Assembly: GCA_963924565.1 (NCBI GenBank)
Contig: OZ004611.1
Span: 6,882,001 to 6,946,000, forward strand
Source: Ascidiella aspersa
Taxonomy: Eukaryota
Direction of reading: 5' to 3'
Length of the DNA stretch: 64,000 nucleotides
The translations under genes were made by a program, and so were the position numbers. The notes beneath the pieces were generated by a model, which was not told where the DNA came from, did not search any database, and saw nothing but the letters and a program-made list of their open reading frames with translations. Shown here piece by piece: positions 17,135-63,109 of the stretch (the first letter of the stretch is position 1; every line of letters starts with the position of its first letter).

Positions 17135-17575
17135 TATTTTTAAAGAAAAGAGACACAAGGCTGTGCGGAGCAGAGACACCACTTCTACAAGCCGTTCGGC
17201 TTCACCCCAGCAAAATTATTAACATTTTTAAAGAAAAGAGACACACTAACAGCTCCAGAAATGTGAGGTAAATATGTTTAGAAATGATTAACTAATATCA
17301 AACCCCAGCAAAATTATTAACATTTGCAAATATTTTAAAGAAAACGGTCACGCCACAGCCGCAGAGCTGTGCGACGCAGAGACACCACTTCTACAAGCCG
17401 TTCTGCATCGACCAGGAGGTAAATATGTTTAGATAACTAATATCAAACCCCAGCAAAATATTATTAACATTTGTGATATTTTAAAGAAAAACGGTCAAGC
17501 CACAGCCGCAGAGCTGTGCGACGCAGAGACACCATTTCTACAAGCCGTTCACCATCAACCATCAGGTAATATATA
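17135..17575 (+). repeat. Tandem array of duplicated exon-intron units inside an unidentified decayed multi-exon gene
   Basis: Unit ttttaaag|aaaacggtca..ctacaagccgtt..ag|gtaa plus intron taactaatatcaaaccccagcaaaa. There are two full copies (exons 17341-17418 and 17487-17565) and two partial copies upstream. Confidence 0.75.
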
Positions 17576-37915: not shown

Positions 37916-37919
37916 TAGT

Positions 37920-39300
37920 TAGTGAGCCGGGGGTCGTAAATAATGAGTAATTCAAGTTATCTCCAGTATGGGTCTATTCCAGCCCCGCATTCCGAATCAC
38001 AGCCGATGTGTTTGCTGTGCTCGAAAGTGTTTTCTAATGAAGCGATGAAGCCGTCCCCAGACTTTCCGAGCATTTAGCGAAAATTCAACCAGATAAAGTA
38101 GGCAAGACTGCAACATTTTTTCAAACGCTCTGGGACAATTTCAAAAAACAGAAAACCATTAGCACAATATTTTCAAACCTTTTCAATAAATACAAGTAAT
38201 GATGGATTACGTGCGTCTTACAATTTGTCTTTGATGATTGCAAGAAAAGGCAAGCCGCATACGATCGGCGACGAATTGATCTTACCATCAGTGAAGGGTT
38301 TTGGACACCGTTTTGCACCACAAGGCTTCTTCTGCAGTTATTATTAAATATGTTCCTCTGAGTAACAAGACGGGAAGACAAGATGGCTACCGATATAGAA
38401 GATAGCATAGGCAACATCATCAGAAACAGAATTTAGTTTACAACCGCTTTAACACTGGATTCAGATACCCGGGGTGAGACAGTATTTCAGAAAGTTAAAA
38501 CATATTTTGAAATGTCATAGCGTGTGCAACTGACGGTGCCCCATCTATGATGGGCCGTTACCGTGGCTTCATAGCATTTCTAAAAGCAGCGAATCCCCAA
38601 CGTGCTTACACCATTGTGTGTGATTCATCGGCAGCATTTGGTGGCCAAGAATACCAGTGATCGTCTTAACCTCTCACTGAAGACCTGTGTCATCAGGGCA
38701 GTAAATAAAATTAAAGCTCATGCGCTTACTTCTACACGGAAGTAAGATGGCTCTCAAGGGAAATATTGCCTTGCACGATTTTACACACTGATAGATACTG
38801 TTGAATTCTTAGAAAGCTGTGACCCTGGCCTTGCCAAAGACATTATTGCTATAAAAAATGATATCTATCGCATACTTGTCAGATATATTTCCAAATTTAA
38901 CGAATTGAACCTGGGCAACGAGGTAAATCTAATCAAGGTAAAATCAACAGTGTGTGGATTCAAAAATAAGCTTGTGTTGTATGGTCGAAATTTAGCTAGA
39001 CGCGAATTCTTCCAGTTTTGCAGCTTGCAACACTTGCTACCAGCGACAAAGGTAGTTCTACTGTTGTTGTTGAGACATACAGCAAGCATATATTACATTT
39101 GGAAATTCCTGACTGGAAATCGACCCGTTCAGTGATATTTCCGAGCAATCTTGCAGAGGAACTTATTTATATTGCAAATGATTTTGAACTCAAACCAAAA
39201 TTCCATCATTTTGGCTGCAAAGATATGTCCTCACGTGTGGGATCGGGTAAAAATTTTTTTATTGCGTGGAGCGTACGTTTAGTGCCGTCACTTTAGTATT
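37920..39300 (+). mobile_element. Second Buster/Charlie (SCAND3-like) transposase remnant
   Basis: Reads QPMCLLCSKVFSNEAMKPS, IARKGKPHTIGDELILP, ACATDGAPSMMGRYRGF, CVIHRQHLVAK and TEVRWLS. Confidence 0.85.
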
Positions 39301-42550: not shown

Positions 42551-43579
42551 GCTGGCAAATAAACATAGTCTACTTTGGCCCGGGGGCTGTGCTTGGAGGA
42601 CCACACTGACATAGGCGGTAAGCACTTATTATGTACGCGACGAAGTTTTGTGACGTCTTTAACCATTTCGTGCCCACCAAACGTAAATATCGTCGATCCT
42701 CTTCTGGTACGCATTGCAAGAAATATCGTGGCCCGTAACGCGCTAATTTGTGGTTTGAGGATTTTTCATGCCATCTAGGGATTTTTTGACATAAGTCCTG
42801 CCATCAAGCTACGTTGCACATCCGTGTGCGCAGTGCACCAAATGTAACAACATGTTGAAGACAGAAGTCGGCCGCAAGTTTGAAGCTCAAGATTTGTTTC
42901 GCTATTATTTTTTCAAAAGCTGGAACTGCAACTAATGTCATAGTTTAACTGAAAACATTGGAGTCCGTTTATATGTTTTAAAACTTCGGTTTTTGCTTGT
43001 TTCATTGATTTTGGAATACGAAAACCAAGATTACTACTACTGGGTGTTGTCTAAAGTATATCAGTACATTTGAGACTCCATTTCTGATGTCTAGTTGTTG
43101 TCTATACAATTTTAACTCTAATTTTCTTGGAATTGCCTTGTTAAACTAATTGCCGCTACCCCAACGTTTGGTTTGAAATTGTCATATTGAATGTGACAAA
43201 CGTCATTTAGAAAACAAATCTGTGTTTTTTGTTCGAAACGATACTCCTGCTTTACGCACGAATAATCAGTTATAACAAAAAACAACAAACCATTTTACTG
43301 TTACACGGACATAAATTTACTTTTAACAATCGTCGCCGCATTTAGTGCAAAGATCCAGAAAAGCTGGCAAGGGGTTAAAGTATATTTCTTGTTTGCTTCC
43401 TATATAGTTAACCGTAAACAACCCAACTAGTTACAAACCGCTTTTAGTGCCTTACTTTTGACAACCTTCAAAAAACGGCTTATAATAATGAACTAGATTT
43501 ATAGACTGAATGTCAGTCAACTAAAACAATCCGTTTTCTGCATTTCATATCGACTTAATTTGAGACACCCAATGCATAA

Positions 43580-45615
43580 TTTTATTGAACCCATTGTTTC
43601 TTCTATTAATTTCCCCACTCTTCTTATGTAGTTTGTTTTCAGCGTCTATTTTCATGTTTTCGTGTTCCATTTAGTGCCATAGTGTCAGCAGTTAGTAGGG
43701 TCAACCGAACTCTATAACATAACACAACAACATACATGCAATACAACTATTTACAGAATAATTCACTAGGTCGAATTCAATTTCACACATGCATTGTGCA
43801 TCCATGTTTTTATGTTTGCACGTTGTTCTTGTGTCGGCTTCGTATTCCGCGACACTGAATTCGACACACTCCCAGTCCCCTGCCCATGCGGCATCGACAC
43901 TAGTGTCAATGGTAGTGGTACTGACACTAGGCTCCTCACGTGATTTCTTGGGACTGGGAGGTGTGTCGAGATTTTATTCTAGTAGTCTCTCCCAACTCTT
44001 CTTACGTAGTTAGCGATTTGGACCAGTTTCTCATCTATAGCCATCCTGTTGTTTACCAGCTCTTTGACTAATTGCGTTACGATTTCGTCCGTGATGTCTC
44101 CTGTAATGCGCTTGCGGTGTTTTGGCTTCTTCCGTCCATTGCGCTTGAACAAACCTTCTCATAGGTTTTACGTCCTCTAGGGATGCCATTTTCGTCAGAA
44201 GGTTGACCGTATTGGCGGTTATGAGTGCGCACTTTCTTCATTGTCCTGCCGGTCCCCATGCGTTTTATCACTACAGCACACTACACTGATTGTGGTGCAT
44301 GAACTTTATTTATGGCGCTTAACAACAACTGATCGTTGTTGAAAAACGCGGGACCGGCGTCGTCGATTTTGAGGACTTTGTGCCCAAATTTCAGCGCCAT
44401 TTGTGCCCCCCCACCCCCCTGACTGTCGTTGGTCATTGATTGATGCGTATTCCGTGGAGTAAGTAAGATGTGTGTGGGGCGTATTGAATACCGCCGTCTT
44501 CGTTTCTGGCTTCTAAAGCTGCCTGTGTGAGTATTCAGAAGCTCATCGTTGTTGAGTGGCGCTTCGTCCCAGATTATGTTTTTCGCTTCGTTTATTATTT
44601 TCTTTAGAGCTTGTTTGTCTTCTTTCCATATGTCATTATTTGGTTAGTATACTCTTTTTGCCAGTAGCTCGGCAAAGTCTGCGGCGAATAGCTTTTCCTT
44701 AAAGGCGTTCATGCTTGGTTTTGTGTCGAAACTACTGGCGACTTCCTCCGCTATTTTTTCTTCAATTGTCCGTTGGATTCGTGTTCGGTTGTTTTTATTA
44801 GGTTTTTTTGCTTCTTCCGGAATGTCGATTTGTTCTACTCATTTGTACATATATTTCACCCATTGGCTGGTGTCTTTGACTACTATGTTGTGGTTATTCC
44901 TAATCTGGATAGGGCGTCGCTCACGGACTTTTTTCTCAGTAGTCTCGATTGCTGTCCTGCCTCCCGACTCAACGTGATGAACGGCCATCCGTTGGACCGA
45001 TGTATATCACTTCCTTGTCTGTTCGGGTTATTCCTGTTTTTTCCATTCGTTGTGGTAAGGGGGCCCACTTTCTTGCTCTGAATGAATCTCCCCTCTCGCT
45101 TATTCCGTTTTCTTCTTTCGATTTTCATAGACAGTTGTTAAATCTCTTATTAATAATTTTGCTCTAATGGTTCTCTGAAAAGTAGTATCAAGTGGGATAC
45201 TTTACGTAATTTGCTGCTATATTTGCTATGACTTCTGCACTCGGAAACATTTTATTCACAATATGACGTCTTGACACTAGAACTGACACTAATTATAGTG
45301 GTTCAGAACGGTGAACCGAATATGACGTCGAGTACGGTATGCAGTCTTTCGTTTAGTATCCTGTTGCTCTAAGGTTTTTCTTGATGCTTTTGGTGGTAGT
45401 ATACATGGAGTTGGGTATTCTTCAAACATCTGCTTGATGGCGGTTGTGCTGCTATGCTCTTTGCTCTTTATCGTGTCGTTTGCACTCCTCATCCAACGGT
45501 CCACAATGCGGGTGCCCAGGTATAGTTATATACCACCTGTAGCTAGTTTCTTGCTCGACTTCAACATCATAATGAACTTTAAACTCACCTGATTTGCATA
45601 TTATACTCTTTTCTT
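43580..45615 (-). mobile_element. Endogenous viral element 1: parvovirus-like ssDNA virus (PLA2 ORF plus NS/Rep), heavily decayed
   Basis: PLA2 reads TIPGHPHCGP-LDEECKRHDK (about 45470-45530). RCR motif III-like WVKYMYK lies at 44842-44862. The SF3 helicase reads TNDSQG..QMALKFGHKVLKIDDAG..KTHGDRQDNE..PMRRF, with Walker A deleted. It is collinear with EVE 2. Confidence 0.85.
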
Positions 45616-45829
45616 AACAAGCCAACAAACGGCTTATAATGAACCTGGTAGAAGAACCAGTCATAAATGTATTAGTTTTATAAATTAAATAGTCAATCTT
45701 GGTTGATAGCAGCATGAAGTGGCAGGCAGTTTTGACATATTACATTTTAATGTTGACGACCTTTCACACAATTGTGTGACACGTCAAGAGAAAGAAAGTT
45801 GAAAACAATCGTAGTTTAGTGCAGACTGT

Positions 45830-47150
45830 AATTAAGCACGGTTGTGTGAAAGCTTGTCATTATTAAAATATATATAAATGGAAAATATAAATACAGTTTT
45901 TTATTACTATGACAAGGGGACATTTTGACATTTAATGTTAAGCAATTTTTTGCTAAAAAAAGATAGATTTGCTTTGCAGCAGATGGATATTCTAGGTCCA
46001 AAAAACTCCAAATAATGACAAAAATACACTGCAAGGATTTTAGTAGGGTTCAACTCAATTAACTTCGAACAATCTATATTAATTCAGCAGCAGCCTGCTG
46101 GCTCTTGGACTGACCCGGAGCAAAGAATATATGGCTGATTTTTATCTTTTTAATTGAATGGCCCGGATATCTTCACATATAGAGTTATAGACTACAGTTA
46201 CCATCTTTTCCATTTCACACTACCTTGTAAACCATTTGTTTGATTTCCACCTTAACATCATGGCCCAGGTTTCAGCCGACTTCTGTAATAAATTTACTTT
46301 TTAACACATTTCTGTTAACAAGTCTATACACCGAAACTGAGGAAATGTTTTGAATGTTTTACTACTTCTCACTTTTCCATCTAGAGAAATAATGTATTAT
46401 TGACGGATTGGTTAATAATTAGGCAAGGCTTGGTCACTGGTTAGTTTAGAATTTGGAATTGGCAATGTTATCATCAGGAGATGAACTTAAACTTATAGAA
46501 GACTGGGTGGACTCTTCTAGCAAACTAGTTGAAAACTATTCGCATTTAAATTACCAGCTGAGCAAGAACTTTCTTGGAGCAGCTGTATCTTCAATCGATT
46601 GAATCTTTTATATTAGAATTACTACAAGCAGCTCTGGAATTTATTGGCAAGATCATTTTTTTAAGTGCTGCATTTTGGTTATTGCCTCTTTTACGAAGCG
46701 CTTCTGATGGGATAGCCTCAGCCCAATATTAAACGAATCGAAACAAGTTTTCTTTCCTTGGCAGTAGGCCCTCTCCCTAACTAACCTTATTTATTGTTTA
46801 CAAAACATTGTCCGTGAGGTGTGTATTTTCTAAAATAGGTTGACAATGGGAATGAATGGAGGATGATGAGCAACAGATAAATGATGTTTTTTGTTTTATA
46901 TAACCTTCTTGAGATTTGTGGTTCTGCTCCAAATTTAGTAGAGTCTAGACTTCGTGAGCTTTGTTTTGAAGGAGTGTTCCGTATGTGATGATGTCTAGTC
47001 AAGGTTTTCCTCCGTTGGAATGGTTGAATCGGACGAGTGGTCCTCAAAACTTTCCGATACATCAGCACTGTCAGTGTAAGAGATGCTGCTGCTCTGAAAA
47101 GAAAACAACAGCCTGTTGGCTTTTCGTACAACTGCAATTACCAAACCAAA
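45830..47150 (-). pseudogene. SAMD3-like CACTA accessory gene remnant (third family)
   Basis: C-terminal FLDLEYPSAAKQIYLFLAKNCL (ORF 45816-46034) resembles the C-terminus in ORF 684-917; the upstream part is poorly preserved. Confidence 0.45.
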
Positions 47151-48031
47151 GGTGGTTGTAAATCAAATAAACATGACACAAGTTATGTTTGTTTGACACC
47201 GTAGAGGAATCAAAAACACCTTACTAAAACTGATGCTAAAAACACAATGATCGCTCATTTTTTTCACGTATTTAACTAAAAATTCTTCAAGCGTCGTTTT
47301 CTCAAGCTTTTTATTTCATCAACGGCCATTTGAATTTTAGCAGCTTTAAAAAAGCAAACATGTTTTTAATCCACGAAGTCATTAAAATAAATAGCACCAA
47401 ACTATGTGTCATCAGGTGGACGATTATCATTTGATTTTTAAACAGTTCATTGTTGTATGACTGCATTAGTGTCTTTGGTAGCGTTTGAAAGTGATATGAC
47501 AGTGAAGTTCAGGGTTTATAAAAAACTGAAGTTCGAGCTGAACCTTATTAAACCAGGCCAGTATGGTTAAAATTTTGTCAGCTTTTCTCTAATCAAAATA
47601 TAATAATAATGTAGGCCATAAAAAGTAATTTTCAATTGTGAACATTACGGAATCTTTATTTTATAAATGATATTAATCTTTTATATGAGCATATTTGAAT
47701 GCCACATAATTTGTGTGAAATTGACGCAATTGTTTTTACTTAATGGATTTTTTCATACAATTGTGGTTTCGATTATTAAGTTCTGTAGAACTTTAGGGGG
47801 TAAATGAAAATATCCACATCAGCTGACGAGACAAAAAAATATTGCCTGTAGGGAGTTTCCTAGAACTGCTTTTTTGAAGCTAGCCTAGTATATTGATTTT
47901 TTATTGCTTCGCTAATTGATCATTTTTTTAGTTTCTTGACAATATCCTTATCTTTCAGTTACATCATTAATAAGTCATTTACTGTTTGAATAAATCATGT
48001 TCTTCGGCAGTCACGGCTTAGATTATTAAGG

Positions 48032-48780
48032 CAGTGGTCTCCAACGTGTGAGTCGCGACCTCAAGTGAGGACGCCTAAAATTTTTGTGGGGTCGCCATAA
48101 CTCACCATATTCGTAATGTGTTTTTAGTACGATTTGTGTATTTAGTTTTCTTTACAATGAGGTATAAAAATTGCTGTTTGTAGCTCTTAAAGACCTGCTA
48201 TATCAGCATTTGTAACATCATACATAATAAAATGCTGTTGATTTCTAGTAAAACATCTGCGTTTTCTAAGGTTGCATTCCACAGGCCAAATTAGAAAGCA
48301 TATTCACTTAGAAACAGGCGAAGAGGCTTTTCGCTAAAAACATTTTTTACGTTCTGCTGCATTCTATAGCACTTGTTATTATTAATAACATTGCCTATAA
48401 TTGTCTCCAAAATGGGGTCGCTTATGTCTGCGAGCAGTTTTGAAAGTTCCGATACACTTTTTGAAATTTCAGTGCTGGTTATACATACACGTGATTGCAT
48501 AATTCTGTCACTGGGTACGGCTGGCCAAGTTAGTTTATTCTTTAGTCCAATAATTAAGGCTTTAAAGAACTCATTGACTGATTATTAAAATGTAATCTTA
48601 AAAATGTCGTGTCCAAAAAGAAGAGAAAGTAACAGAAAAATTATTTTAAATTTAGATTTAGAAATTTTATTGAGAATGGTCTTTAAGTTCCTCAGTGTGT
48701 CTCGTGCGTGGAAACATTTTTAAACAGTAACATGAAACCGCCGGCCCTTTAAAAAGGCACCTAGCAAATTTTAGGCACAC
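48032..48780 (+). mobile_element. Truncated Buster/Charlie element: left end plus BED-finger N-terminus
   Basis: TIR cagtggtctccaac with gtcgc repeats. From 48604 it reads MSCPKRR..FIENG..PQCVSCVETFLNSNMKP. Confidence 0.65.
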
Positions 48781-48909
48781 AAACTGGAATGTCTTGACAG
48801 CACAACTCGTTGCCAAACGCAAGGGAACAACCCGTCGCATTGATTATACCTGATGCAATTTGTTACTTTCCTTTTTCTAATAGATGAGAACTATTTGATA
48901 TAATGGGGG

Positions 48910-49141
48910 GTAAATCTGATATAGAATATAGATAACGAGAGGGAATCTATGTGATCCTATAGTATATATACATACATTAGAAGTATAACAGAAAAATGCT
49001 AATATATTAGGATCCTACAGAGTTATAGACTAAAGATTTCGTATAGGGAGTCTCTATAGGATCAAATAAAGCTGTTCTTATAGGCAAAGTCTAATAAGAT
49101 CCTATAGAGGAGTGAGTCCTAAAAGCAGTATTTGCCTGGTG
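48910..49141. repeat. CACTA/EnSpm-like terminus with (gat)cctatag subterminal repeats
   Basis: Multiple gatcctatag/ctataggatc motifs in both orientations ending in agtatttgcctggtg. Confidence 0.45.
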
Positions 49142-49299
49142 TTCGGTCGTTATGGGATAAATTAAATAAAGTCATCAACATTCATGTAAATATGCATTTG
49201 CAAATATATATCTAGGATATATACACACATACTTATCTAACTCAGTTACTTGAAACATAAAATCTGTCGAAATATCAGTATAAACACACAATTGCCAGT

Positions 49300-50600
49300 T
49301 CACATTGACACATAACATCAGCTTAGCTTGACAGTTATATTACTTACCACAACGTGTTACATTTCATGTGACATAACTGCACGGTTAACGTCGACTTCCA
49401 CTAATGCTTGAACAGCACGCAATCTTGAAGGTAACAATAATATTTTCCTTGCTTCAAGCCTTGTAGGTTGTTTGCAAGGAATACATATTTTTCTTTCACG
49501 TATCCTGAAGTCAATGACTTTTAAAGAGTATGAACCTCAGGATTTACATCAGACATTTTTTTCAACATTAAAAACGTTTCAGCTATTTGTAATGGAACCT
49601 TTTGAGTTCCCAGAAACAACTTTTTAATTGTTCCATTGTACCCTTCAAACAAGAAAGTGGATGTTGGTTGCCCACAATGGGCCAGAATTAAAAACTGACC
49701 CTGCTAGGTTCCAGTTGATTAGTCAGTACATTAAAGGCATTTGCTTTATAAACAGTTTCTACTGTTACAGTTTCACTCATCAAATTCAACAGTGCAAACA
49801 CAAATAAAAACCAATGGATGGTTTAAAAAATACATACCCTCTAAAAAAAAAAAGAGAATAACAAATTAATGCTCTGGCCTTCCAGTGTTTTCTGGTTGAA
49901 AAAGGTCTGGCTGGACACCCACCTCTGCTTATCATCTCTTTTGGTGGCCGTATTCTTTGAATTCGTTCATCTAATTCCTACACATAAAAGTCATTGTCCC
50001 TTTTTCTAGTATCAATCCATGTGTTGACAAACACTTGTGTCTTGATTCTACACAGCCAGCCTCCTCTGCTCACTATTTGTGGTCCCTTCTTGTAAGCACC
50101 AATCGCACCCATATGTACCATTAAATTCCTTGCAATTTCTAACTATAGCTCTTACTGGAGCATCTGCAGACGATACAAATACTTTAAATGTCCAATGTTT
50201 GTTCCAAGTTGAACAAGTTCATCTGTAAATGGTTTTAGGAAATGTATTCATTCTCTCGGCTTGGAGGATCCAAACCATAAACCACTCATAATCATGTGTT
50301 TTCGGCGAAGGTGCGGTGGTAGTTCATTTATTGTGGCTAATATTGGCCAAACAGAATATAGTTGGATGACTTGAATATACGAACACCATCAGTGTTGAGT
50401 AGTAATGAGATATCATTTTTCCTAAAATGCGCTGTTGGATAAGATATTGACGCCCATGCACAATATGGATATTGCCCAAGTTTCTATTGTTCGAAAAGTC
50501 ACTTATATTTCATGGTTATCTAAAAACTGCTGTGAAGTTGAACAGAAATACCAATGAAGAAGTTACCACCTTCCCTGTAGCTAACATTGGAATTGAACTG
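49300..50600 (-). mobile_element. CACTA transposase remnant (Tnp2/Transposase_21-like)
   Basis: Reads ISLLLNTDGVRIFKSS, VWPILATINELPPHLRRKHMIMSGLWFGSSKP, FLKPFTDEL and GPLWA..FEGYNG. Confidence 0.8.
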
Positions 50601-51019
50601 GGTGTTCAGTGTAATATGACACACAACAAATAAACAATAAATATATTTTTAGTTGTTTGTAAATATAATATAATATCCAAGTGTGTACATATGTCATATT
50701 TGACTGCAAAAAGAGGTGCGCGAGAAGCGCAAAAAATTTGCATATTCGACAAACTTTCAATTTAGGAGACTGTATTTTATAAGCGTGGAATGTTCGCGAA
50801 AACCGTGTGTATTACTAAGTGGCAAAAACAGTAATTTATATAGGGTGTACGGTATTTATATTATGTTTATACTAAAAGTACGGAAAACAAAACGCAAACT
50901 TGCCAATGCTTTTGGAGGCATGTTTGTTGTCCTGGTCCGCCATATGTTAGCGGCCCGGCTTCTTGTTTTAGCATAGTGGTTGCAGGTTCTTCAATCTGCA
51001 CCCAAAAAGTAAAAACATA

Positions 51020-51343
51020 TGTGGACACAAAGAAAGGATATTTATTGCAATTAAACAAACGACAAACGGTACTTACACAGATACATACATACAATAATTA
51101 CCTCCGTATAACGTACGCGATCTGGACTCCACAATGAACAGTATGCAAGACTGCTATTTTTGGTATAAAATGAAATCCCTTATATACACAGCATTCCAGC
51201 TGGCGGTAATTAAATATCGTGACTCGGACAAACGACGAAAACACGATCAGGCAATAATAAACTGGACGTCACAACCGGCCAGCCTGCTTCATTTGGTTGG
51301 CCGGGGTTTCAAGCCGGTAACAATATGGAGCGCAAACGCTACA
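51020..51343 (-). repeat. 3' LTR
   Basis: The minus strand runs TGTAG...CCACA, with AATAAA near 51040, and matches 53572-53920. Confidence 0.85.
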
Positions 51344-53535
51344 TCACAACTCCCCTTGTCTTTGAGGCAATAGGTCCGTCAAACATTGTTCATGGGATGG
51401 ATCATGTCCTCCTTGTCGATCGGCTCTTTGTAGAACAAGTCAGGAACGGTCGAAACATAAATGACTGTTGTCTAACGATGAAAAAGCTCGCTTCGTACAA
51501 AGCACGTTGGTAGTCAAAGAGCTGAAACTGAACTGCTCCTTCTAGTGTTCGAGAATCCCTCCGTAATCGAGCTGGTACTTTGTTGCTGAACAATCTGTGT
51601 AAAAAATACTTACACCGGCGTTTAACAACATGCGAATACAAGAAATGCACAGCCTACAATGCAGAAATAGAGCCGTAAAAATCGTAATTTTAATGTAGAA
51701 AGACAAAAACCGTCAGTCAAATGCCTAGAATCTATCGTTCTAGAATACCGAAATCAAGGAAGTTAAAGGTGCTAAACTCTGAAACTCGAAAACAAAATAA
51801 ACGCCTTGTCCATTTTAAAAGTAATCCCTAAATGACAGACATTTTAACCTTGGCGTAAAGGTTATGCAAAGCTTGTATGCAAGCTTGTACCTCAGCCGTC
51901 AGTAAGGTAAAAAGGCTTCACGGCATCACGTGGCCTTGAAAACATCGGGAACTATGCCCGGAATACAAACAAAACGGTCAGGTTATTTTAGGTGTGATAT
52001 TATCTCTGATCAAACACCGTAAACCATATAGGACCAGACTGCAGGTTAGCTGCAAACGGAAATGGCACTTTAGAAGGCACAACTTCTGTAAGTGTGAGAG
52101 ATAAATATATCTGTTTACAGGCTTAGAGATTAGTTTACGAGAGAAGAATATTCATTCTCCTACGTAAAGTTTCACCTTTAACTTAACAAAAAGAGACGTA
52201 ATTTTGCAACTGACTGAACAGCTATGCCGTAAATTTAGTTAGCTCAAAAGCGGTGTTAAATCTGCATTGTTCGACCGATATGTCAACATTAAAACGTGCT
52301 CAAAATTTAGCAACAACATACTACAATGGCGGCGGCTTAGAGAGAAAAACAGGCGTGGTGCGTAAAAAGGTAAACAAGGCATGTATCAATAACTGACAAT
52401 GCATAGGATAGCTGCCATCCTTCGTGAGCGTATTAGTGAAATTCAATTTGATTATGCAAGGCCCATCCCTGCGTTAGCGACAACTTTAAGCCATAGGCGC
52501 TAAAATTACCCAAAAAATGTTAACTAAGCGTCTATCAAGAAAACTAGCAAAAAGCTGAGAATAAGAGGAAGAGAAGATTAGAATAGTCAAACAAGGTTAG
52601 AATAGTAAGAGGCCGTAGAGATAAGGTAAAGTAAAGTTATGAAAGCTTTTATCATCAGGTGTAAACGTCGTAGGAAAGTGCTGTTTCCTTCGCAACAGAT
52701 CCGCAAGATTTGCTTGCAAGCTGTTAGGTCAGGCGGACGATACCAGTCATCGAGATACTTAAAATCATCAATCGATCGACAAGAATTCCTGTCAAGATTA
52801 GGTAAAGAGAAAGTTGAAAAAGATAGCTTAGAAGTACAGAGTCTGGCTTTAAATAGCATGTCGTCATAGATGTTTTGAACGTCGTAGATGTAGTAAACTC
52901 GCTTTGTTGACGAGGAGGCATCGCTTCTGCATTTGAAAGTTCGCTGTTGGACGTAACTGCAACAGACTGAAAAGATTTTACCGGAACATTTAAAGGTTTT
53001 GCCGTGTTGCAAAACGACGATGGAGCGGCTTCGAAAGTTGAAAGCGGTTGGACGTTGTCCATCTGCGGTTGGGCTAAAAGATCAGCTGCAGGTTGAGAAA
53101 CAGAATCGTTAGACAAGATTGACACTGCAATCGGTGGAACAACTGTAACCGATGGCATTGGAACATCATTTTCTGTTAAACTGTCTTTTGAGAAAGGAAA
53201 AACAGGTTTAGAAAAGGAGCCTATTTGCGGACGCCGTAGCTTAGAGATGGAAAATTTCGAATTATTTCCCTTTGGTTTCGGAAAAACATTACCTTCCCTT
53301 ATATTGCATGGCAGCTATACGCGTTGAAGTTTTGACGTTGCAAGCTTTAAATTTGCTTGAAACCTTGGAAAACAAAACGGAAAAGTTATTCTTCGACATA
53401 ACGATTTTAAGAATAATAGCACACAGTAAATAAGACTAAAAATAGGTGCAAAAGCGTAGGTTACAAATAGATTTAAATCAACACAATAGGTTAATATTAA
53501 TTATTTTAGAATATTAGTTAATCAGAAGGAATTAA

Positions 53536-53568
53536 TGCGTGTTCAATATCACGTCAGGTGCGTCAACA
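53536..53568 (-). promoter_or_regulatory. Primer binding site complementary to the tRNA-Trp 3' end (extended)
   Basis: The plus strand tgcgtgttcaatatcacgtcaggtgcgtcaaca resembles the eukaryotic tRNA-Trp 3' end TGCGTGTTCAAATCACGTCGGGGTCACCA and lies 3 bp from the 5' LTR. Confidence 0.7.
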
Positions 53569-53571
53569 ATT

Positions 53572-53920
53572 TGTGGGTTTAAACACAAAGAAAGGATATT
53601 TATTGCAATTAAACAAACGACAAACGTTACTTTACACAGATACTTACGATACATACATACATACAATAATTACCTCCGTATAACGTACGCGATCTGGACT
53701 CCACAATGAACAGTATGCAAGACTGCTATTTTTGGTATAAAATGAAATCCCTTATATGCAGCATTCCAGCTGGCGGTAATTAAATATCGTGACAATGCGG
53801 TTCGGCGACGCATCGAAAAAGAGGAAACTCGGACAAACGACTAAACTGTCAACCGGCCAGCCTGCTTCATTTGTTTGGCCGGGGTTTCAAGCCGGTAACA
53901 ATATGGAGCGCAAACGCTAA
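53572..53920 (-). repeat. 5' LTR
   Basis: Direct repeat of 51020-51343 with reciprocal indels. Confidence 0.85.
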
Positions 53921-54559
53921 TAGTTGAAAAATGGGGGGGTATTGCTGTTACGAAAACATCTGCGTTTTCTTTGTATTCTTTGGCAGCTTTTGTATCAAGA
54001 ATCAACAAGGTTTTCCCGAAAATGCGGAGTATATGGGGACATGATTTTTGCAGAGTCGGAAATAAAAAGTATATTATACCCGCGAAGTCGGTCGTAGAAA
54101 CTTCTGTAATTGTAATGTTTCGATCCACTGATCAACTCTAAAATAGTGTAAAAATGTTTAATATGTTTGGCGGGAACTTTAGGCCGACCAATCAAATCGC
54201 TCGTTTCAAACGAAAGAAAAAAGTCGGTGACGTGACAGTGAATGGAAATATTTATTTGAGCATCCAAATAAACGAGGTTAGTAGAACCGGAAAAGTAAAA
54301 TATTTTGTTGGTTGTTAAATTCTTACGAAACGTTAAAAAAATAATTTAATTAGTTAATATGTCTGTAACTTAAGGATAGCAAAATAGAATCTGGTTTGGT
54401 TTAAATTTAATGAGTTCATAATTTTTATAAAAAAATATTAGTGTTAAGTTGTGTTTAAGTAGTCCTGCATCGAGGTATATTGATTTGATAAAACCTATAA
54501 CATGTGCCGAACTGAAATATAATCAATCAAATATGTAAATTTATGTATTTATATTGTAG

Positions 54560-55630
54560 GTTACTTGCTGCTCATATGAGGTAAAATGTCCATTTGATAA
54601 TTGTTCCAAACACTACAAAAACGTATCTTTATTTTCATCACATCTGACAAGAATTCACACACAAGTCAAGCGGTACGATGTCGGACAAGCCACACCTGAT
54701 GAATTAACTGGAGAATCAGAAGTTCCGTTGAAGAACTTTGTTCAACAAACCCCGCGCCCACAGCAAATATAAATATGATCACCAGACACTATGCTTTATT
54801 ATATATACTGTTTTGTGGAACACAAACGTCTTGTGCCCTCGTCGACCATAACTGAAATTGTTTGTCAGCTTGGCACAAACTATATGGCAATGCTAGTCAA
54901 AATTGGTGCTTATTGCGACTTATCACATTTTTTGTTGGAAAAAAGGTACAAAACTTTGACAATATTGTCTGGCAAGCAACTATTGCTCTTCAACGAATAG
55001 TGCAATTAGTTTGTGCACCCTATTTAAATGTTAATAATTTAGTTGTTCTTCAAAATGAAATTAACTTATATATTGCATTGCGCCAGTCAGCTTTTGTTCA
55101 AGTTTCTTTAAGACCCAAACATCATTATCTTTGCCATTACCCCTACCTGATACAGCAGTTTGGCCCTTTGACAAGGAGTTTGGACTTTAAGATTTGAGAG
55201 CAAGCATCGCTATGTAGTTAAAAGTTGTGGAAATTTTATAAATATTACTCAAACACTTGCCAACCATAAACAACAATGTTTGAAGAGAATATAATACTTC
55301 CTTGGTGATCCTTCAATAAATCCTAATGTGTTTTGCTTTACCAGTTCTTCTAATCTATCAACTAAAGTAATTGTTAAACTTATGGATATGTATGCTTGTT
55401 ATCCAATTCACTCTTATCTTCTTCACGGAGAAGAAATAATGTTTGTTTTAAGACAAGGCAAACATAAATTTTTCGAAATATTAAGCAACAATATAAGTGC
55501 AACAAATCAACCAACACCATACTATGAAAAATTAAAAAGTTATTCATTAACGAGCTACATTACAAATGCTGCATTGTTTCCCAAAAAAGGTATACACACT
55601 ATTGTTATTCTGCAACAAAGATACTTTTAA
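54560..55630 (+). mobile_element. CACTA/EnSpm transposase remnant with C2H2 finger (same type as 2963-5247)
   Basis: Reads CPFDNCSKHYKNVSLFSSHLTRIH and LRPKHHYLCHYPYLIQQFGPL..WTLRFESKH; the catalytic core is mostly deleted. Confidence 0.8.
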
Positions 55631-57759
55631 GAGCTATGAAATACTCAACAGGGCTATATAAAAACATATACACAATAAAAATAACTGTAAAGTAGTGTTT
55701 ATTATAAAAGTGCAAGAAAATGAAAAGTATAATTGTTTTGTTTTCACTGCTTGTTTTGAAATTGGCGTCCGATCCAGGCACTCCTGGGACACCAATTTCA
55801 GACAACTATATACATTTTGTAAATTCTATATTAATTGTATTTTACTTTAAACCAGTGGTTCCCAACCGCCGGTCCGCGTCAACTTTCCTGTCGGTCTGCC
55901 AAGTATGTTACAATTTTATATCTCACTTGCAAAATGCAAGATGTTGAAGGCTTGTCTATCACATTTTGAACTTTTTGCCATAATATAGAGTTGATGATCT
56001 ACTTTAAGCCTTTATCAAACGTCACAATGCTGCAAGTGTTGCGCCCAACTGTTTAAAAGTGGGTTATAGCTCATTAAAGTCTTAAAATTTAAGACTAGTT
56101 GTAGCTAAGAAGCCTTTTAGTTCAATACTTCTGTCGTAATTACATTTTGGTTTGATTTTTGAAGGTCCACCGGTTTTGTAGGTAACACTAGCCCAGTATG
56201 CCTCCAACCATGTTCATCGTCTGATGTTGGGAGTACTGGCATAGATGGTGACTGGTTATATAAATTCAAAATACCTTGGGACGCTTTTCCACCAAACCTA
56301 CTACTTGCGTGCAGAGAGGAGTCAATTCCAGACCCTCTCTTGCGATTAGAGAAGATGGTCAGAATTGTAACAAAGGACATATTCCGTTTTGTTGACCGAC
56401 CGAGAAAAAGAGATGTGGATAATGTAGCTTTAAATATAGTGACCAATTCGCATCTCTTTCTAATTGAAGAGTTCAAAAACGACAGGTCCCCTTCAAAGAA
56501 ATGACCTTCATTATGAGACTCTAGTGGGGCCTAGTGCAAGCAGTCTTTCAACTGCAATCAAAGAGGGGGGGTCAATTGTAATAATGCTCTTTGAATATTT
56601 TCAAACTTATGAAACACATTAAGAAATGACATAATAGTTTTTTCTATAGATGCTAAAAATCAAACCATAGAGCCCAAAATAAGTCGTTCGTTATTTAACT
56701 GTAAAATATTTTGAAATCATTGGGCCTACCAAGAGTCAGTAAATAAATAAAAATTCTTATTTATTATGCTCCTCACCTTTTATAGGAATCTTTCAGCCTT
56801 ACACATTTTACTTGTGATCATGGATGACGCCTAGTGCACTCAAATTTTACACATTTTTTGTGCCAATGCATTACCACCCTCTTAAGTTCAGAGTTGTAAA
56901 TGTTTTAAGAACTTCGGGTTATAACAACAAAATTTCACCAACCTGTTATAACGATAGTTTACTGAAGATGACATTTTTCCTTGGTGTTCATTTTTACTTT
57001 TGCTGAGTTGAACATTAAACAAATAAAAGAAAAACTGAAATTAAAACCAAACACACAGTTGGCTCTTTTTTTAAAGAAGAGGTGGTGTCCGATTTATACA
57101 AATGCTTTTTCGGTAAGTCTATCTGATTTGTTAATTGTATGACCGACAACTAAATGCTAACTAACACCATTTAAACCAGATCAATTGCAAGGAAATTTAA
57201 TAGTTATGTAAGGTTGGATAAAAGTTTTTAAGGATAATAATTGTACATTCTTAGGGTCAGATATTTGATGTAATGTATTACATAAGTTTATTTTGCGGAG
57301 CGACACTCTTTTTGAAAATATAGTTGAAGATGCACCAGCGACACCTTTTGTAGTGCTAGGTAAAGTTTTTGCTAGTAATAATGTTGTTGCAAAATTACTT
57401 AGATATATATTAGTTGCGCTATGCGATCATTTTATGAGCATGTATTTTTTCTCAACTTGGAACCTGAAACCATAAAACCAATTGTGTAGTGCCTGTATAA
57501 GGCAGGCTACAATGCTGTTAAAGCCTAACTTTAATCTTGGCCTTTTTTGATAGTATGATGACGACTCTGTTGATGCCACAAAATTTGTTGTCTTGGTAGA
57601 AAAAAATTTGGCCTGCACATTCAGTGATACAATAATCACTTAAAAATCCATTTCAAACAAATAAACGTCAAACACAGTAGTGTTCTTATCGTGTTTGCTT
57701 GCCTATTTGAAAATAGAATAAAAAAAGGAAAGTGGGGTAACTAAAAAAATGAAATTTAG

Positions 57760-57860
57760 TGTTATTAGAATTACAGAAAAAATCCTTAGAATTTTCCAGA
57801 CAATAAATTCTGTAAATATTACGAATTTCCGTAAATATTACGAATTTTTTCTTGTAATTA
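57760..57860. repeat. Short tandem motif cluster, likely transposon subterminal repeats
   Basis: gtaaatattacgaattt is repeated in tandem, with related ttacag/ctgtaa motifs nearby. Confidence 0.45.
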
Positions 57861-58033
57861 ATCAAAATAGCTCTGAATAGTCATTGAGTCGTAACTAAAG
57901 CGAAAAATAAATTTGTAGAGGATTGATTCTCCACAGAGCACGCAGTAGTATTGTTTAGTAGAAGAGTTGCCGACTAGCTTTAGGCTTTGAATCTTTTCTT
58001 TTCGTTAAGTTCTTAAGTTTTAAACTATTTTTT

Positions 58034-58975
58034 TTACTCGCCGAACAATTTTACTTTTTTACCGGAGAGCTCGTCAAAATTCTGGATGTAATTTTGGCAA
58101 TGGGCAGAGGAGATATGTCTACCAAAACCCTCTCTGGGAATTTTGATGTTGGGGAAAAAAGTCTTGCATATAGTAGACAGGCTCTTAATCTGTGGTTGGA
58201 CTAATAATATCATGCTGACTGACTGGAATAACTTTATGGTCAACGGAAGTAATATTCTGGCTTTCTATCTGTGTAACTATTTTCTTGTGTACTTTCGATT
58301 CCTGTGTCTATGCTGCCGCAAATTCTGCATCTTTAAAAATACATCAGGGTTGTTGTATGGCACAATCCCCGCTGACCTGAAGCCACTTACAGAATTGGTC
58401 ATGGAAGCAGCTCGTAAACAGGGATGCTATGTGCATCTTGAACTCGTTGACCCACATGACTTTGCCATCCATTTATCTATTTCTTGAAAGTAGTAGGTAG
58501 GTTTTGACAGGACCAACATTTATGTACGGTTCAAAGGCTGCAGGCGATGGGAGGTGGGATTAAGAACACAGCTCTCTTTTATTCCATTCTTGTTGGTAAG
58601 TACAGATGGCTGTCGTGATTGTCAAGGGAATTAACAGAGGTATGAAAATGCATCACCCATTAAAAAAATATTTTGCCGTCCATCCAGAAGAAGAAGCAAA
58701 ACCTTTTGAGCCTTGTGGTGGTGCTTCATTAAGGAAGGACCAGCGCACTCATGGCGCAAACTGTTATTGTTTTCAGCACTGGTCACTTTGCCCACTTGCT
58801 TCATCCCTTTTGCTGCAATAATGGCACTTGGTTTTTGAACGCAAGTTAAAACGCTCAAACTTGTACTTGGTTCAGGTTTCCTAACAGTCAGACTTGGGTG
58901 TCTTTTCAAAAAGCTATTTATTAGCCAGTCATTTCCTGCTTTCTTTTTCTGGTTGTTGAAAGAAACTTGCATGCT
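58034..58975 (-). mobile_element. pogo-family (CENP-B/DDE_1) transposase remnant
   Basis: Reads AGNDWL..FLKRHPSLTVRKPE, VQKPSAIIAAKGMKQVGKVTSAE and SSGW, with a Cys-containing C-terminal remnant. Confidence 0.75.
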
Positions 58976-59692
58976 GTTGGGTTTAGTGCAGTTCTGAAAC
59001 GACCTAACTTTGCATCATCCCCCCAGGCTTGAATACCGCCGAAAACTTGATAATTTCAACTGTTTTGAATAACAGTCTGTAACTTCAACTTTGCGTTAAC
59101 TCTTGTAAACAGCCCATTATTTTACTATACTGTCCTTATATATCAAAATACTCCAAAACTTATATTTCCCCTCACTGGTTCAATGTCAAATATATCTGTG
59201 ATTGCTTGACCCAAGCGTTTCCTTGACATTTGTCACGGTTCAGTCAACAAATGGTGGCGCTAACTTATCTCAATCCACGAACCCACATATTTTTCCATCT
59301 GAGCACAACATTTTTTTTGACTAACTTAAAGCAGTGCAGTGTAATAGTGTTATCTAATTAGCATATTTATAATTTTTTTCTTTTTATTGTAAATTTTTTT
59401 TCTTTTTTTGAGTTCGGAGGGTCAAACGAACCCCACATATAGCCCCTCTGTACTAAATACTACACTATTATTAGTGTAATTTATTTTGCACTAGTTTTTT
59501 AATTACATTAATTATAGTACAGTATTTAGTACCCACACTATACATGCGACATATCCCGCTCTCTTTCATCGCTTCCTCTACCATGTTAATCATCTGAAAG
59601 TCCTCTTCTTCTAGTTCTTCTTCTTTTTTATCTTGCTCACATGTGCATTGAGCGCACATGCCATTATTGACCCATCATTTCCAATAGTGGAG

Positions 59693-60415
59693 CTATTGCT
59701 CTCTCCGCGAAGCCCGTGGCAATATCTCCACACGTGATTTCTTCGCGGATACTTCTTCTTTTTCTTCTTCTTCTTCTGACGTGGGGTACGACCTTTTCGT
59801 ACTTCTACTGCTAGTACTGCTCTGACTGCTTTCTTCCTCTTGCTCTTCCTCTTCTTCGTCACTTATATCCTCGTCGATTAGATGTGCTACCTTTCGCACA
59901 TATTCCGCTATTTCTATTAGTGATGGTTGTACTGCCATTTCCCTGTTTTCCAACTTGTCTACCAATTCCGATGTTATCTCCATTAATAGCTCATCAGTGA
60001 GGTCCGATGTTATCCTCTTTTGTGCTCCTAGTTGTGGGCTTTCGCTTTGCTCCGTCCACTCTGCTGTAACAAAGCGTCTGCGCATTGGAGCCATATCTTC
60101 TAACCCTGCCATCTTCTTTACCAGTGGATGTGAAGCATTCGTCGTTATGAACGCGCAGGTCGCCTCGTTGTCCTGCCGGTCGCCGTGTGTTTTAGCGCTC
60201 CACGCATTGTGGTGCATAAATTTCACGGCGGCCAGCAGGGCATCGTTGTTGAAAAAGGCGTTGCCTGCGTCGTCCACTTTTAGCACTTTATGTCGGAACC
60301 GCAGCGCCATTTGTCCCACCCCCTGGGAATCGTTGGTTAAGATTGATGCATACTCGACTGGAAAAATGAATTTTCCCAGGAATGTTTTGCCCTTCCCAGC
60401 GACCCCGTGGAGCAT
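59693..60415 (-). pseudogene. SF3 helicase domain of a viral NS1/Rep-like protein (5'-truncated)
   Basis: Walker A GVAGKGKT, Walker B VLKVDD, motif C FITTN, arginine finger PMRRRF, then an acidic tail and basic KKSR. This is the longest ORF in the window (240 aa). Confidence 0.85.
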
Positions 60416-60519
60416 GATGTGGGTACTCTATTCCTCCTGTGCCTCACTTCGTGCCTCGAGTCCCGCTTGTACCATTACTAATAATAGCTCATCGGTACCA
60501 TTACTAATAATAGCTCATC

Positions 60520-61034
60520 CGATAGTCTTGCGCGCTTAGCCGTTGGTTCCCCAGTTTCCATGAGTGATTGGGAATTGATGGATAAATCTTCCATCGCTTC
60601 ATTCATTGGGCTTTCTACAGGGCTGTTTCTTGGTATGTTGGCGGCGGTTGTTGTTGTTGCAGCTGTTCCTGATGGCCTTGTTCTGTTGTAGTTCTGTATC
60701 TGCGGCCAATTCTTCTCAGTTCGCGCTTTTTTCGCAGGGGGCATGTGAGGTAGCATTGCTTTTTTAGCTTTGAACACACCACGCACGATAGTGCTACTAA
60801 TGCCAGGAATGTTAGCGCTATCTCTGAGTAGATCACTATCCGCAGAATTAAATGTCCAGTTCGTATTGTTTGTCGTGTTTGTCGTGCTTCGTATTGTTTG
60901 TCGTGCTGTTTGCAAGCCTCATCAAGCGCTCCTCCTGTCGTGTCTTCTCCAATTGCATTGAACGGTCCGCAATGGGGGTGCCCTGGGATTGTTATTCCTC
61001 CTGTCGCAAGTTTACTGCTCGACTTCCACTTCAT
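60520..61034 (-). pseudogene. Viral phospholipase A2 (VP1u/PLA2X-like) ORF with NLS-like tail, frameshifted
   Basis: Reads PGHPHCGPFN..LDEACKQHDKQYE and, after a small tandem duplication, WTFNSADSDLL..VFKAKK..MPPAKKAR..EPTAKRAR. Confidence 0.85.
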
Positions 61035-63109
61035 ACTGATTCTAAACCGACAATCTGAATTACTAGATAATATTGGTATTTTGGAGTTCTAACAACCTGT
61101 CGATATTTGTGCCATTAATTGAAAAATAACAATCAAACTTTTAACTGTAAACTTTAACATAATTTTAATAAACAAATCTTATTAGAGAGTTTACTAAGAA
61201 AACAACATTCATAATTGGGCATTTGTTTGGAGAATTTTTTTGCCTGTATTAAAATCCCAACAAAAAAATCAGCTTCCAGACATTTTGTTAGATAACAAGA
61301 CCTTTTTTCAGCTTTAGGAAAAATTAATTACAAATTGGTTACGTGCTTAAATCCTAGAAATGACCTGTGGAACTGTTTTTAAAATTTTTTCAATCAGGAA
61401 TGATGTTTTTTCTAACTACCTATTCTGTTTATATATTTAACCATTCAATAGGTTACAGTCTAACAGTTTGTTGTAACTTGTAAAGTAAAGAGGGATTTTG
61501 CTACCAATAGCACTTACACTTTTCAGTTTTAGTCAGATATTGATATGTTTGCCCACAATATACTTTAATATTTACTGTCAGATAATAACAACTTATATAT
61601 AAACTTGATGGTAGATTCCAAAGACAACTGCTTTCAAGTTAAGCACACAACACGCTACTATCTCACAGACTAATGTTGCTTGATCAACGATTAATTCAAA
61701 CGTTCCAAGAATGCTACATACTACTACTCTATGGGCTTTGATTAAAATAATTAGCCTTAGTAGTGGGCGTTTACCATAATTTGGCGCAGATGTACAAATT
61801 AAAAACTTCAGTCGATCTTAAAACAACAACCAGTGTTTTGCTTTTAAAGCATTCGCCACGAGTGGGTGTGGGTCAACAGCACTCGTTAAATTAAAATTTG
61901 TACTCGTCAGTTGTTTGAATGTGAACCAATCAGAACTCCCCCCCCCCCCTTATTTTGATGATTCAAACTAATTCTTAACCCAGTTTTGCCTCTAATGATA
62001 AAACTCTAGAACCCTTTAAAACAATATACCACCGTACACTATATAATTAAAGTTATTTGTTTATGATTGATTACATTTTGTATGACATTTAAGCTTCTGA
62101 ATGAGATGAAATGTCTCTTTGGAATTGATGTACAAAACAAGTTAATATTGGAACAAAAGTTACTAAAATTTTTGTGGGGGGTCATAATGCTAGTCTGATT
62201 TTGTTTTAACTTTATCTGTTGCAAAAGAATGTTACAAAATTTGCAAGAATGTTCGGGTTTATGCCATAATAAGCATGCACGGTTTGTACTAGATAATCAT
62301 TAGCTTCGGCCATTTATTGGAAACAGGAGTGTGTTCTCTTGCGACTCCCAGATTGGGAAGAACTGTTTCTACACTGACAGCAATTAATCACAATCGACCA
62401 ATGTATATTGCAATGAAAAATTATCTTTCAAATGGTTAACATTTTACTTCTATTTAAAGCAGTTGTGTAAATTGTGATGCATAACTACATAACAAACATG
62501 AAGGTTAGCGTTTGGGGAGAGACTCAAGGTGGCAAGTCAAGTAGTGGAGTTAAAGGCGTCCTCACTATGATGAATTTAACTGTAAAAAGGAGAAGACAAA
62601 CACAGCTTGCGTTTCCATGTGAAGGTAAGGACGACAAGCGCTGTCTTTGGATTGCGGAAAAGCGAAAAAACGCCCTCTTGGTAAAACAGAGGCATGCTGT
62701 TTCAGAAGTATACTGAGAATACCAGTGTCATCACTAGGGCCATTTTTATTTTGACCTAAAAAAAAAAATTTTATTTTTTTATCAAATTTTAACTCTTTAT
62801 TTTAGCATAACGAAATTGCTTGTTTGTAGAGGCCACAGTTCTTCCTTGAATTGATGCCAGTTAGCCAAACATAATATTATGGATTTAGCTTGCTTAGGCA
62901 TTTTTGTATTACAGAATGTCAGCAGGCTATTCCTAAAATCCAAATTGTTGATCTTCTAAAAGACCACATTTATGAAGATGAAGTGTTTTATAAAAATTAT
63001 TTAAATACGTAACAATAAATGAAACACTGGACAATTTGCATAAAAAGTTACTGCTGATCAACTTTGTCATGTAATTTGACTAATTATTTTAACCTATAAA
63101 CTTCTTAGA

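Follow-up and report, generated by a model that had tools for sequence, protein, structure and literature searches.

Two minus-strand loci with PLA2 and helicase motifs

The window analysed here is a stretch of 64,000 nucleotides (nt) from Ascidiella aspersa (assembly GCA_963924565.1, contig OZ004611.1). It corresponds to G000:C5:6882001-6946000, where G000 is the host genome that was searched (308.6 Mb, 75 contigs) and C-numbers denote its contigs. Two minus-strand loci, E1 (~43580-45616) and E2 (59331-61047), are likely deleted endogenous copies of a DNA virus. This virus was likely linear and likely single-stranded, with a probable capsid gene (VP) led by a phospholipase A2 (PLA2) domain, a small open reading frame (ORF2) and a replication gene (Rep) arranged in this order between two palindromes.

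In both loci the PLA2 motifs lie upstream of a superfamily 3 (SF3) helicase gene, as a preliminary description of the window had proposed. The PLA2 loop PGHPHCGP is found at 45520 in E1 and 60986 in E2, and CKxHD at 45484 and 60914; the E2 domain passes the Pfam cut-off (PF08398, E 1.3e-5). YMYK, the third motif of HUH endonucleases, is retained only in E1 (44853), as the same description had noted, and Walker A (GKGKT, 60397) only in E2, having been lost from E1. Walker B is present in both (44370 and 60280). The reported common tail was likewise located: KKSR at 43949 and 59743, AQCxCE at 43799 and 59653, and AATAAA at 43586 and 59388, the last being weak evidence by itself, with six occurrences within E1. 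The E2 helicase reading frame matched no Pfam family. It aligns with that of E1 at E 8.5e-10, and E1 matches the VP of the family at E 3e-7. Since the likeness between the loci is limited to two short blocks of 66-80% identity, E1 and E2 represent separate insertions.

Both copies are internally deleted, in agreement with the first description. Relative to L021, a fuller copy elsewhere in the host genome, E2 lacks ~1830 nt, which fuses VP codon ~170 with the middle of Rep. The deletion in E1 removed most of VP and left the run from the VP end through ORF2 into Rep. A separate gene upstream of PLA2 (ORF-X), which had also been proposed, does not exist: the short KxLATGG segment belongs to the PLA2 protein, as its N-terminus, and in E1 stands in a different frame from the remainder, and no ATG-started ORF longer than 33 amino acids (aa) occurs between the left palindrome and the VP start in any of the four fuller copies checked. 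The true additional ORF lies between VP and Rep.

Features of the E1 and E2 loci in the window
Feature	Position	Strand	Basis or remarks
E1 likely VP promoter and leader	45575..45616	-	TATA-like TATAAT; octamer ATGCAAAT 45599-45592; splice-donor-like site 45590-45583; function putative
E1 5' fragment of VP (PLA2-capsid gene) with frameshift and internal shortening	45464..45572	-	tblastn to L021 VP residues 1-46; motifs
E1 decayed VP 3' end and VP/ORF2 spacer after large deletion	45262..45451	-	weak blastn to L032, L038, L040; spacer alignment
E1 ORF2 remnant (NS2-like ORF overlapping the Rep 5' end)	44917..45253	-	tblastn E 3e-8; MFPS at 45250
E1 broken Rep gene	43770..45109	-	retains YMYK, Walker B, arginine finger and C-terminal AQCxCE; has lost Walker A; interrupted by several frameshifts and stops
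E1 3' region with GAGTTCG box and AATAAA, right boundary uncertain	43580..43710	-	motif match
E2 VP residues ~1-169 (5' third of the gene), with frameshift	60517..61047	-	91% nucleotide identity to L021
E2 deletion junction, VP to mid-Rep, with 25-nt tandem duplication	60469..60519	-	comparison with fuller copies
E2 3' half of Rep	59552..60496	-	codes for an SF3 helicase (Walker A/B, motif C and arginine finger present), an acidic linker and a Cys/His tail
E2 cassette with 32-bp inverted repeat, downstream of the Rep stop	59450..59532	.	fold z -5.2; like cassettes in other copies
E2 part of the right-end palindrome (loop and inner arm)	59331..59440	-	GAGTTCG box, A-tract, octamer-like box, CACTATTAC; stops at the break common to 9/11 right ends

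An 18-nt direct repeat (94%) is present on both E1 flanks (43469-43486 and 45623-45640) and is a possible target-site duplication; the region holds 27 repeat families, and it may be due to chance. The host DNA of the window further contains a 340-nt repeat pair, 85% identical (51025-51341 and 53583-53919), and a tandem repeat of ~150 nt at 17160-17574. On visual inspection, ORFs near 36300-39100 and 58600-59000 resemble remnants of transposases; none reaches the Pfam cut-off.

The likely capsid gene precedes Rep in all 14 units with both genes

Searches of the host genome with the E2 helicase and the PLA2 peptide gave 38 and 8 matches, respectively. From these, 28 DNA stretches (L-numbers) were fetched and, together with the window, 29 were mapped. 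In all 14 units that hold both genes, VP lies upstream of ORF2 and Rep on the same strand (L021, L026, L027, L028, three units in L032, L035, L039, L040, L063, L069, E1 and E2), and none of the 14 has an ambisense layout or a nonstructural (NS) gene followed by VP. The suggestion that PLA2 before Rep is the real architecture of an undescribed single-stranded DNA (ssDNA) virus group is thereby supported. In L021, a VP of 474 aa is followed by a 110-nt spacer and an ORF2 of ~176 aa, and Rep starts ~130 nt further in another frame, overlapped by ORF2. A concatemer of an ordinary NS-VP parvovirus was considered and rejected; the spacer between VP and ORF2 carries no terminal palindrome.

The copies sit in contigs of 20-40 Mb, and a neurochondrin ORF is located 2 kb from L028, placing them in the animal genome as endogenous elements. 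Divergent copies cluster at C3:5.02-5.19 Mb, C3:10.80-10.86 Mb, C5:6.9-7.9 Mb, C5:29.77-29.79 Mb, C5:32.6-33.1 Mb and C8:18.70-18.73 Mb, in neighbourhoods rich in transposon remnants. Small-RNA source loci are comparable in this respect. Three VP-end/ORF2/Rep units, whose deletions differ, follow one another in tandem across L032:2960-9900 and L033:1-1864.

Rep combines an HUH nuclease with an SF3 helicase

Rep is a protein of ~550 aa that contains an HUH endonuclease and an SF3 helicase, as indicated by its motifs and by the modelled fold of a relative, P0004. The motifs comprise motif I (WAFTT), HxH, YxYK, GxxGxGKT, DD, TTN and RRF, of which HxH and YxxK are conserved throughout the family. 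The Pfam families Parvo_NS1 and Viral_Rep matched none of three host-genome Reps or 25 relatives, and no Rep or NS1 sequence from the PDB matched a profile of 23 Rep sequences. The preliminary description had spoken of a parvovirus-like lineage with a PLA2 ORF and an NS/Rep gene. The PLA2 ORF is the N-terminal part of a 474-aa likely capsid protein, and Rep is not recognisable as a parvoviral NS1.

A HMMER pass over 1.84 billion proteins retrieved 57 Rep relatives. Among the 20 that were looked up, 18 are unnamed, one is a 'hypothetical protein' and one an uncharacterised protein of the ascidian Styela clava, XP_039269095.1; none is named as viral or as belonging to a parvo-like hybrid virus (PHV). 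Some relatives lie on contigs of 0.1-3.4 Mb and are likely endogenous in other genomes. Word-seeded protein searching gave no relative among 3316 candidates when a host-genome Rep was the query and 6 among 8000 scored, none named, with the 23-row profile; PHROGs gave generic NTPase matches only. Twelve Rep rows from the host genome group with P0004 in a quick tree with no named outgroup (SH-aLRT 97).

The fold was modelled on P0004, which is 44% identical to the Rep of L032 (predicted local distance difference test, pLDDT, 78.6; domains not folded separately). The model has a helical collar between nuclease and helicase. Its helicase matches papillomavirus E1 (Z 12.2, root-mean-square deviation (rmsd) 3.7 over 183 aa; E1 entries Z 12.1-12.3) and Rep40 of adeno-associated virus (AAV) 2 (Z 11.9, rmsd 3.8, 182 aa), followed by the Rep of porcine circovirus 2 (PCV2; Z 7.8, rmsd 3.2, 127 aa). 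The best match of the ~110-aa nuclease is RepB of pMV158 (Z 9.5, rmsd 2.6, 100 aa), with a nanovirus Rep (Z 8.6) and circovirus Reps (Z 8.4 and 7.9) next, where a Z near 8-9 is only modestly above the common range. No parvoviral nuclease appears among the 50 matches listed in either structure search of P0004, which does not by itself exclude that fold. In BFVD, Reps of circular Rep-encoding ssDNA (CRESS) viruses and parvoviral NS1 are tied as nearest structural neighbours at 10-15% identity. Rep is thus predicted to join a circovirus/plasmid-type nuclease to an E1/AAV-type helicase.

VP is a likely capsid protein with an N-terminal PLA2 domain

The VP frames are open over 474-480 aa in L021 and L027; L028 has a 480-aa frame with the last ~20 residues in another frame. 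The PLA2 domain occupies residues 13-87 (PF08398, E 2.5e-11), and the matches to parvoviral VP1 in the PDB are confined to the N-terminus. Residues 175-474 resemble capsids of ssDNA viruses from several phyla in language-model features (0.89-0.94) and have three unnamed homologues among 1086 candidates (95, 52 and 40% identity). The ratio of nonsynonymous to synonymous substitution rates (dN/dS) is 0.11-0.28 in six of six pairs.

Different palindromes mark the two ends

Palindromes of 120-200 nt are found at both ends, one of them Y-shaped with an internal mismatch. The Y-shaped palindrome lies ~290 nt upstream of VP in five of nine left ends, and L028 keeps its inner arm only. The folding energies of left palindromes are -61 and -58 kcal/mol (z -15.4 and -11.6), a stability that none of 200 shuffles reached. 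The left end also holds CRE-like sites. A TATA-like box, an octamer and a splice-donor-like site precede VP in seven of nine left ends. The same left-palindrome mismatches are seen in L033:455-620 and L039:5220-5372, and the palindrome is nearly perfect in L035:5930-6085, a pattern that resembles a hairpin bubble repaired in L035. A solo left palindrome with arms of ~200 nt occurs at L065:3860-4090 and L066:4000-4230, duplicated with its flanks 237 kb apart.

At the right, nine of eleven aligned ends stop at one point (L068 was left out of the count as an A-tract false match). Their flanks are unrelated, except for a common flank in L026 and L027, so that at least eight separate flanks share one right break. 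In L038, an outer arm completes a hairpin of ~185 nt (z -12.1), and the shared break therefore falls just past the loop. The two ends differ, yet a GAGTTCG box and an octamer-like box are common to both.

Inverted-repeat cassettes of a single type occur ahead of VP, in the VP/ORF2 spacer and downstream of Rep (L021:5295-5400, L027:5520-5650, window 59450-59532, L028:6050-6130); the spacer of L027 shows 81% likeness to the cassette at the right end. Rep binding or termination are candidate roles for this module; alternatively, it could be left over from the fusion of two segments.

The difference between the end palindromes bears on the origin of the gene order, for which a circular or concatemeric template had been suggested at the outset. 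Because the palindromes differ, the order is genomic and the concatemer is largely refuted; the circular template is a rival that we weigh below.

The copies diverged under purifying selection

Across the helicase, the proportion of nonsynonymous differences (pN) is 0.03-0.17 and that of synonymous differences (pS) 0.42-0.93 in 27 of 28 pairs. The exception is the near-identical pair L022/L023 (pS 0.03), whose members have different flanks. Divergence under such strong purifying selection points to repeated independent endogenisation: the copies would stem from many separate insertions of related viruses, and a small number would have been duplicated afterwards (L022/L023, L026/L027 with their common flank, and L065/L066).

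The elements might instead be a capsid-bearing rolling-circle transposon that multiplies in the host, the fixed right end being an insertion boundary made by Rep. The single right break shared by separate flanks and the close likeness of L022 and L023 at different sites would suit such an element, and a non-autonomous partner could be seen in the Rep-less unit described below. Most copies, however, combine near-saturated synonymous change with conserved proteins, which many viral lineages explain better than bursts from a master copy; in addition, the left ends vary and no examined copy is complete. We regard the transposon as very unlikely.

Sequencing reads and metagenomes

Four of twelve listed runs were placed on L021:3300-7300 at 80% likeness. 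The RNA run X8 contributed 201 reads over VP, ORF2 and Rep, 147 of them less than 90% alike; they run mostly in one direction, which may be sense or antisense as the library direction is uncalibrated. The DNA run X7 covers VP and the ORF2 start at 368-525x against 6.3x expected per copy, and the Rep bins (5712-6381) at 8-57x. It thus contains a Rep-less unit (L021:3608-5618: left palindrome core, VP and ORF2 start) at ~60-80 copies per haploid genome, ~95% like L021 and with an A-rich left junction. This unit was not found in G000, where counts are lower bounds, and a contig of 1710 nt of the same kind is present in the marine metagenome X3. It could be a defective genome, an episome or an unassembled array.

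A tblastn search of plasmids gave no match. Of seven metagenome loci whose ORFs were inspected, most are presumably polinton-like, going by gene content. The metagenome contig L048:12-4616 carries a 1039-aa ORF resembling an RNA replicase, followed by a 465-aa capsid-like ORF that starts with a PLA2-like motif, both identified by eye; PLA2 in an RNA-virus-like genome would be unusual.

A probable capsid-first linear virus as the source of the copies

We consider it probable that the copies derive from an undescribed family of linear, hairpin-ended ssDNA viruses of ~4 kb, heterotelomeric and hairpin-primed, parvovirus-like in working and belonging to neither Parvoviridae nor Oomyviridae as described. 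The gene order, the palindromes, the motifs, the many divergent copies and the selection on them are direct observations; single-strandedness we infer.

PLA2 serves endosomal escape in the VP1 unique region of parvoviruses. In the cycle that we propose, the 474-aa protein would form the capsid and its PLA2 would have the same role. The left promoter would drive VP, and ORF2 and Rep would be expressed either from a second promoter in the 110-nt spacer or by splicing from the conserved donor upstream of VP, with leaky scanning between the two starts ~130 nt apart. Rep would nick and unwind the terminal hairpins during rolling-hairpin replication. Integration may have happened repeatedly, with double-stranded intermediates captured at germline breaks, often once a closed terminal hairpin had come open near its tip; such opening would account for copies with the inner arm and loop only, namely the nine right ends that share a break and the left end of L028.

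Several observations weigh against this interpretation. The complete right palindrome is known from L038 only and no copy examined carries both palindromes, so that the linear map is pieced together from overlapping copies. Gene order was read in the host genome only, and in the rearranged arrays (L032, L033, L038/L069) Rep pieces lie upstream of a later VP start, with other DNA or a palindrome between. For VP, only four of the ten best atlas matches with a family agree on the capsid fold. The AlphaFold model of the protein reached a pLDDT of 30, so that the capsid fold is unconfirmed and the capsid label stays provisional. Scans of viral contigs found no free virus or viral relative, and a metagenome scan with VP returned 22 loci, all of them matching in PLA2 alone and lacking any ORF of the Rep family (best E 0.44).

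Two further points concern the ends. The loop of the right end contains a CRESS-type nonanucleotide (C/TACTATTAC) in seven of the twelve right ends examined, and in L033 a right-end-type cassette lies just outside a left palindrome, a possible head-to-tail junction. Together with the CRESS/plasmid-type nuclease and its motif I, they would suit a circular unisense CRESS-type virus with a PLA2 capsid, opened at or near its origin on integration and hence showing the capsid gene before rep. The match to NANTATTAC lies ~10 nt before the shared right break. It occurs in close kin only, and is absent from six of six left ends and four of four spacers. It gives a weak hint of a circular or CRESS-type origin, because the other five right ends are without it and the break is not at the canonical nick; the copies extend ~12 nt beyond that position. 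CRESS origins are short stem-loops, unlike the long palindromes at both ends here. Moreover, no right end in any mapped stretch continues into a left palindrome, and the helicase has flanking helices that PCV2 Rep is without. A circular virus of this type is thus unlikely.

Comparison with known systems

The virus shares with Parvoviridae (monosense Parvovirinae, iteradensoviruses and hamaparvoviruses) a likely linear genome of ~4 kb, terminal palindromes, PLA2 at the capsid N-terminus, an SF3 helicase with flanking helices as in AAV Rep40 and B19 NS1, and a small ORF that overlaps the replication gene at its 5' end. It differs in that the capsid gene comes first, whereas NS of parvoviruses lies ahead of VP in monosense genomes and on the other strand in ambisense ones. 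The nuclease is compact, with motif I and a fold nearest to RepB, nanovirus and circovirus proteins, Walker B reads DD, and Parvo_NS1 is not matched.

The Swazi bat-associated megaparvovirus lineage has a PLA2 ORF and a second ORF upstream of NS1 on one strand, a PLA2-free VP downstream, known endogenous viral elements (EVEs), a homotelomeric genome of ~6.4 kb and beetle hosts (PMC13426907). Here, too, a PLA2-containing ORF and a second ORF precede the replication gene on the same strand. In contrast to that lineage, no VP follows Rep, the right palindrome begins within ~250 nt, and the PLA2 protein itself has a capsid-like core.

Oomyviridae (Lineavirales, the PHVs) are described as linear ssDNA viruses with a PLA2-containing capsid and a circovirus-like Rep (PMC12451638, PMC13426907, bioRxiv 10.64898/2026.04.22.720165). 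PHV genomes are described with a replication ORF and a capsid ORF, both forward, as in Parvoviridae, the order of the two being only implied (PMC9703751). Linear ends, a PLA2 protein with a presumed capsid role and a CRESS-type nuclease are common to both groups. Their predicted hosts are stramenopiles, whereas the present copies lie in an animal germline, next to a neurochondrin ORF and with a relative in another ascidian. The Rep found here is ~550 aa long, has an E1/AAV-type helicase and does not match Viral_Rep, and the gene order likely differs. Further comparison drew on PMC9896142, PMC4419787 and PMC12297876.

The hairpin-ended layout, the PLA2 domain and the AAV-like helicase fold, the PLA2 ORF upstream of NS1 in megaparvoviruses, and the combination of PLA2 capsid and circovirus-like Rep in Oomyviridae would all suit a divergent member of one of these described families, with an order already known or rearranged after insertion. 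We find this improbable. The Reps and relatives searched match neither Pfam family, the 23-sequence profile matches no PDB Rep or NS1, and the BFVD neighbours are distant and tied between CRESS and parvoviral proteins. No ORF lies downstream of Rep, where a megaparvovirus VP would be, and the order is constant across lineages that diverged under selection. The copies likely represent a new, family-level variant of linear ssDNA viruses. No capsid-first linear ssDNA virus was found described in the literature covered, which was without most subscription literature, the original PHV papers, the ICTV proposal for Oomyviridae and supplements.

If correct, animal ssDNA viruses gain a group of family rank whose gene order was not found described, and linear hairpin ends are paired with a CRESS-type nuclease for a second time, likely independently. 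The 57 Rep relatives provide a search profile for a group missed by Pfam and word-seeded searches. Many divergent insertions in a few chromosomal neighbourhoods offer a test case for EVE-based small-RNA defence in a marine animal. With the Rep protein, the proposal that the replication proteins of parvo-, papilloma- and polyomaviruses descend from circular Rep-encoding viruses can also be tested through structure and phylogeny.

A wider interpretation is possible, and we put it forward tentatively, at less than even confidence. The copies could represent a new order-level lineage of capsid-first linear ssDNA viruses of marine invertebrates, with an active CRESS/plasmid-type nuclease and an E1/AAV-type helicase. 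Such a lineage, still circulating in the host population with Rep-less capsid genomes at tens of copies per host genome, would link circular Rep-encoding viruses to the parvo-/papilloma-/polyomavirus line as a living intermediate.

Two other comparisons concern the replication gene. In Bidnaviridae this is a protein-primed PolB; here it is an HUH-SF3 Rep, and the fuller copies contain no polymerase ORF. Papillomavirus E1 and polyomavirus large T share with Rep the succession of origin domain, helical collar and SF3 helicase, and E1 is tied for the best helicase match. They belong to double-stranded DNA viruses and their origin domain has lost nuclease activity, whereas HxH and YxxK are conserved across the family described here.

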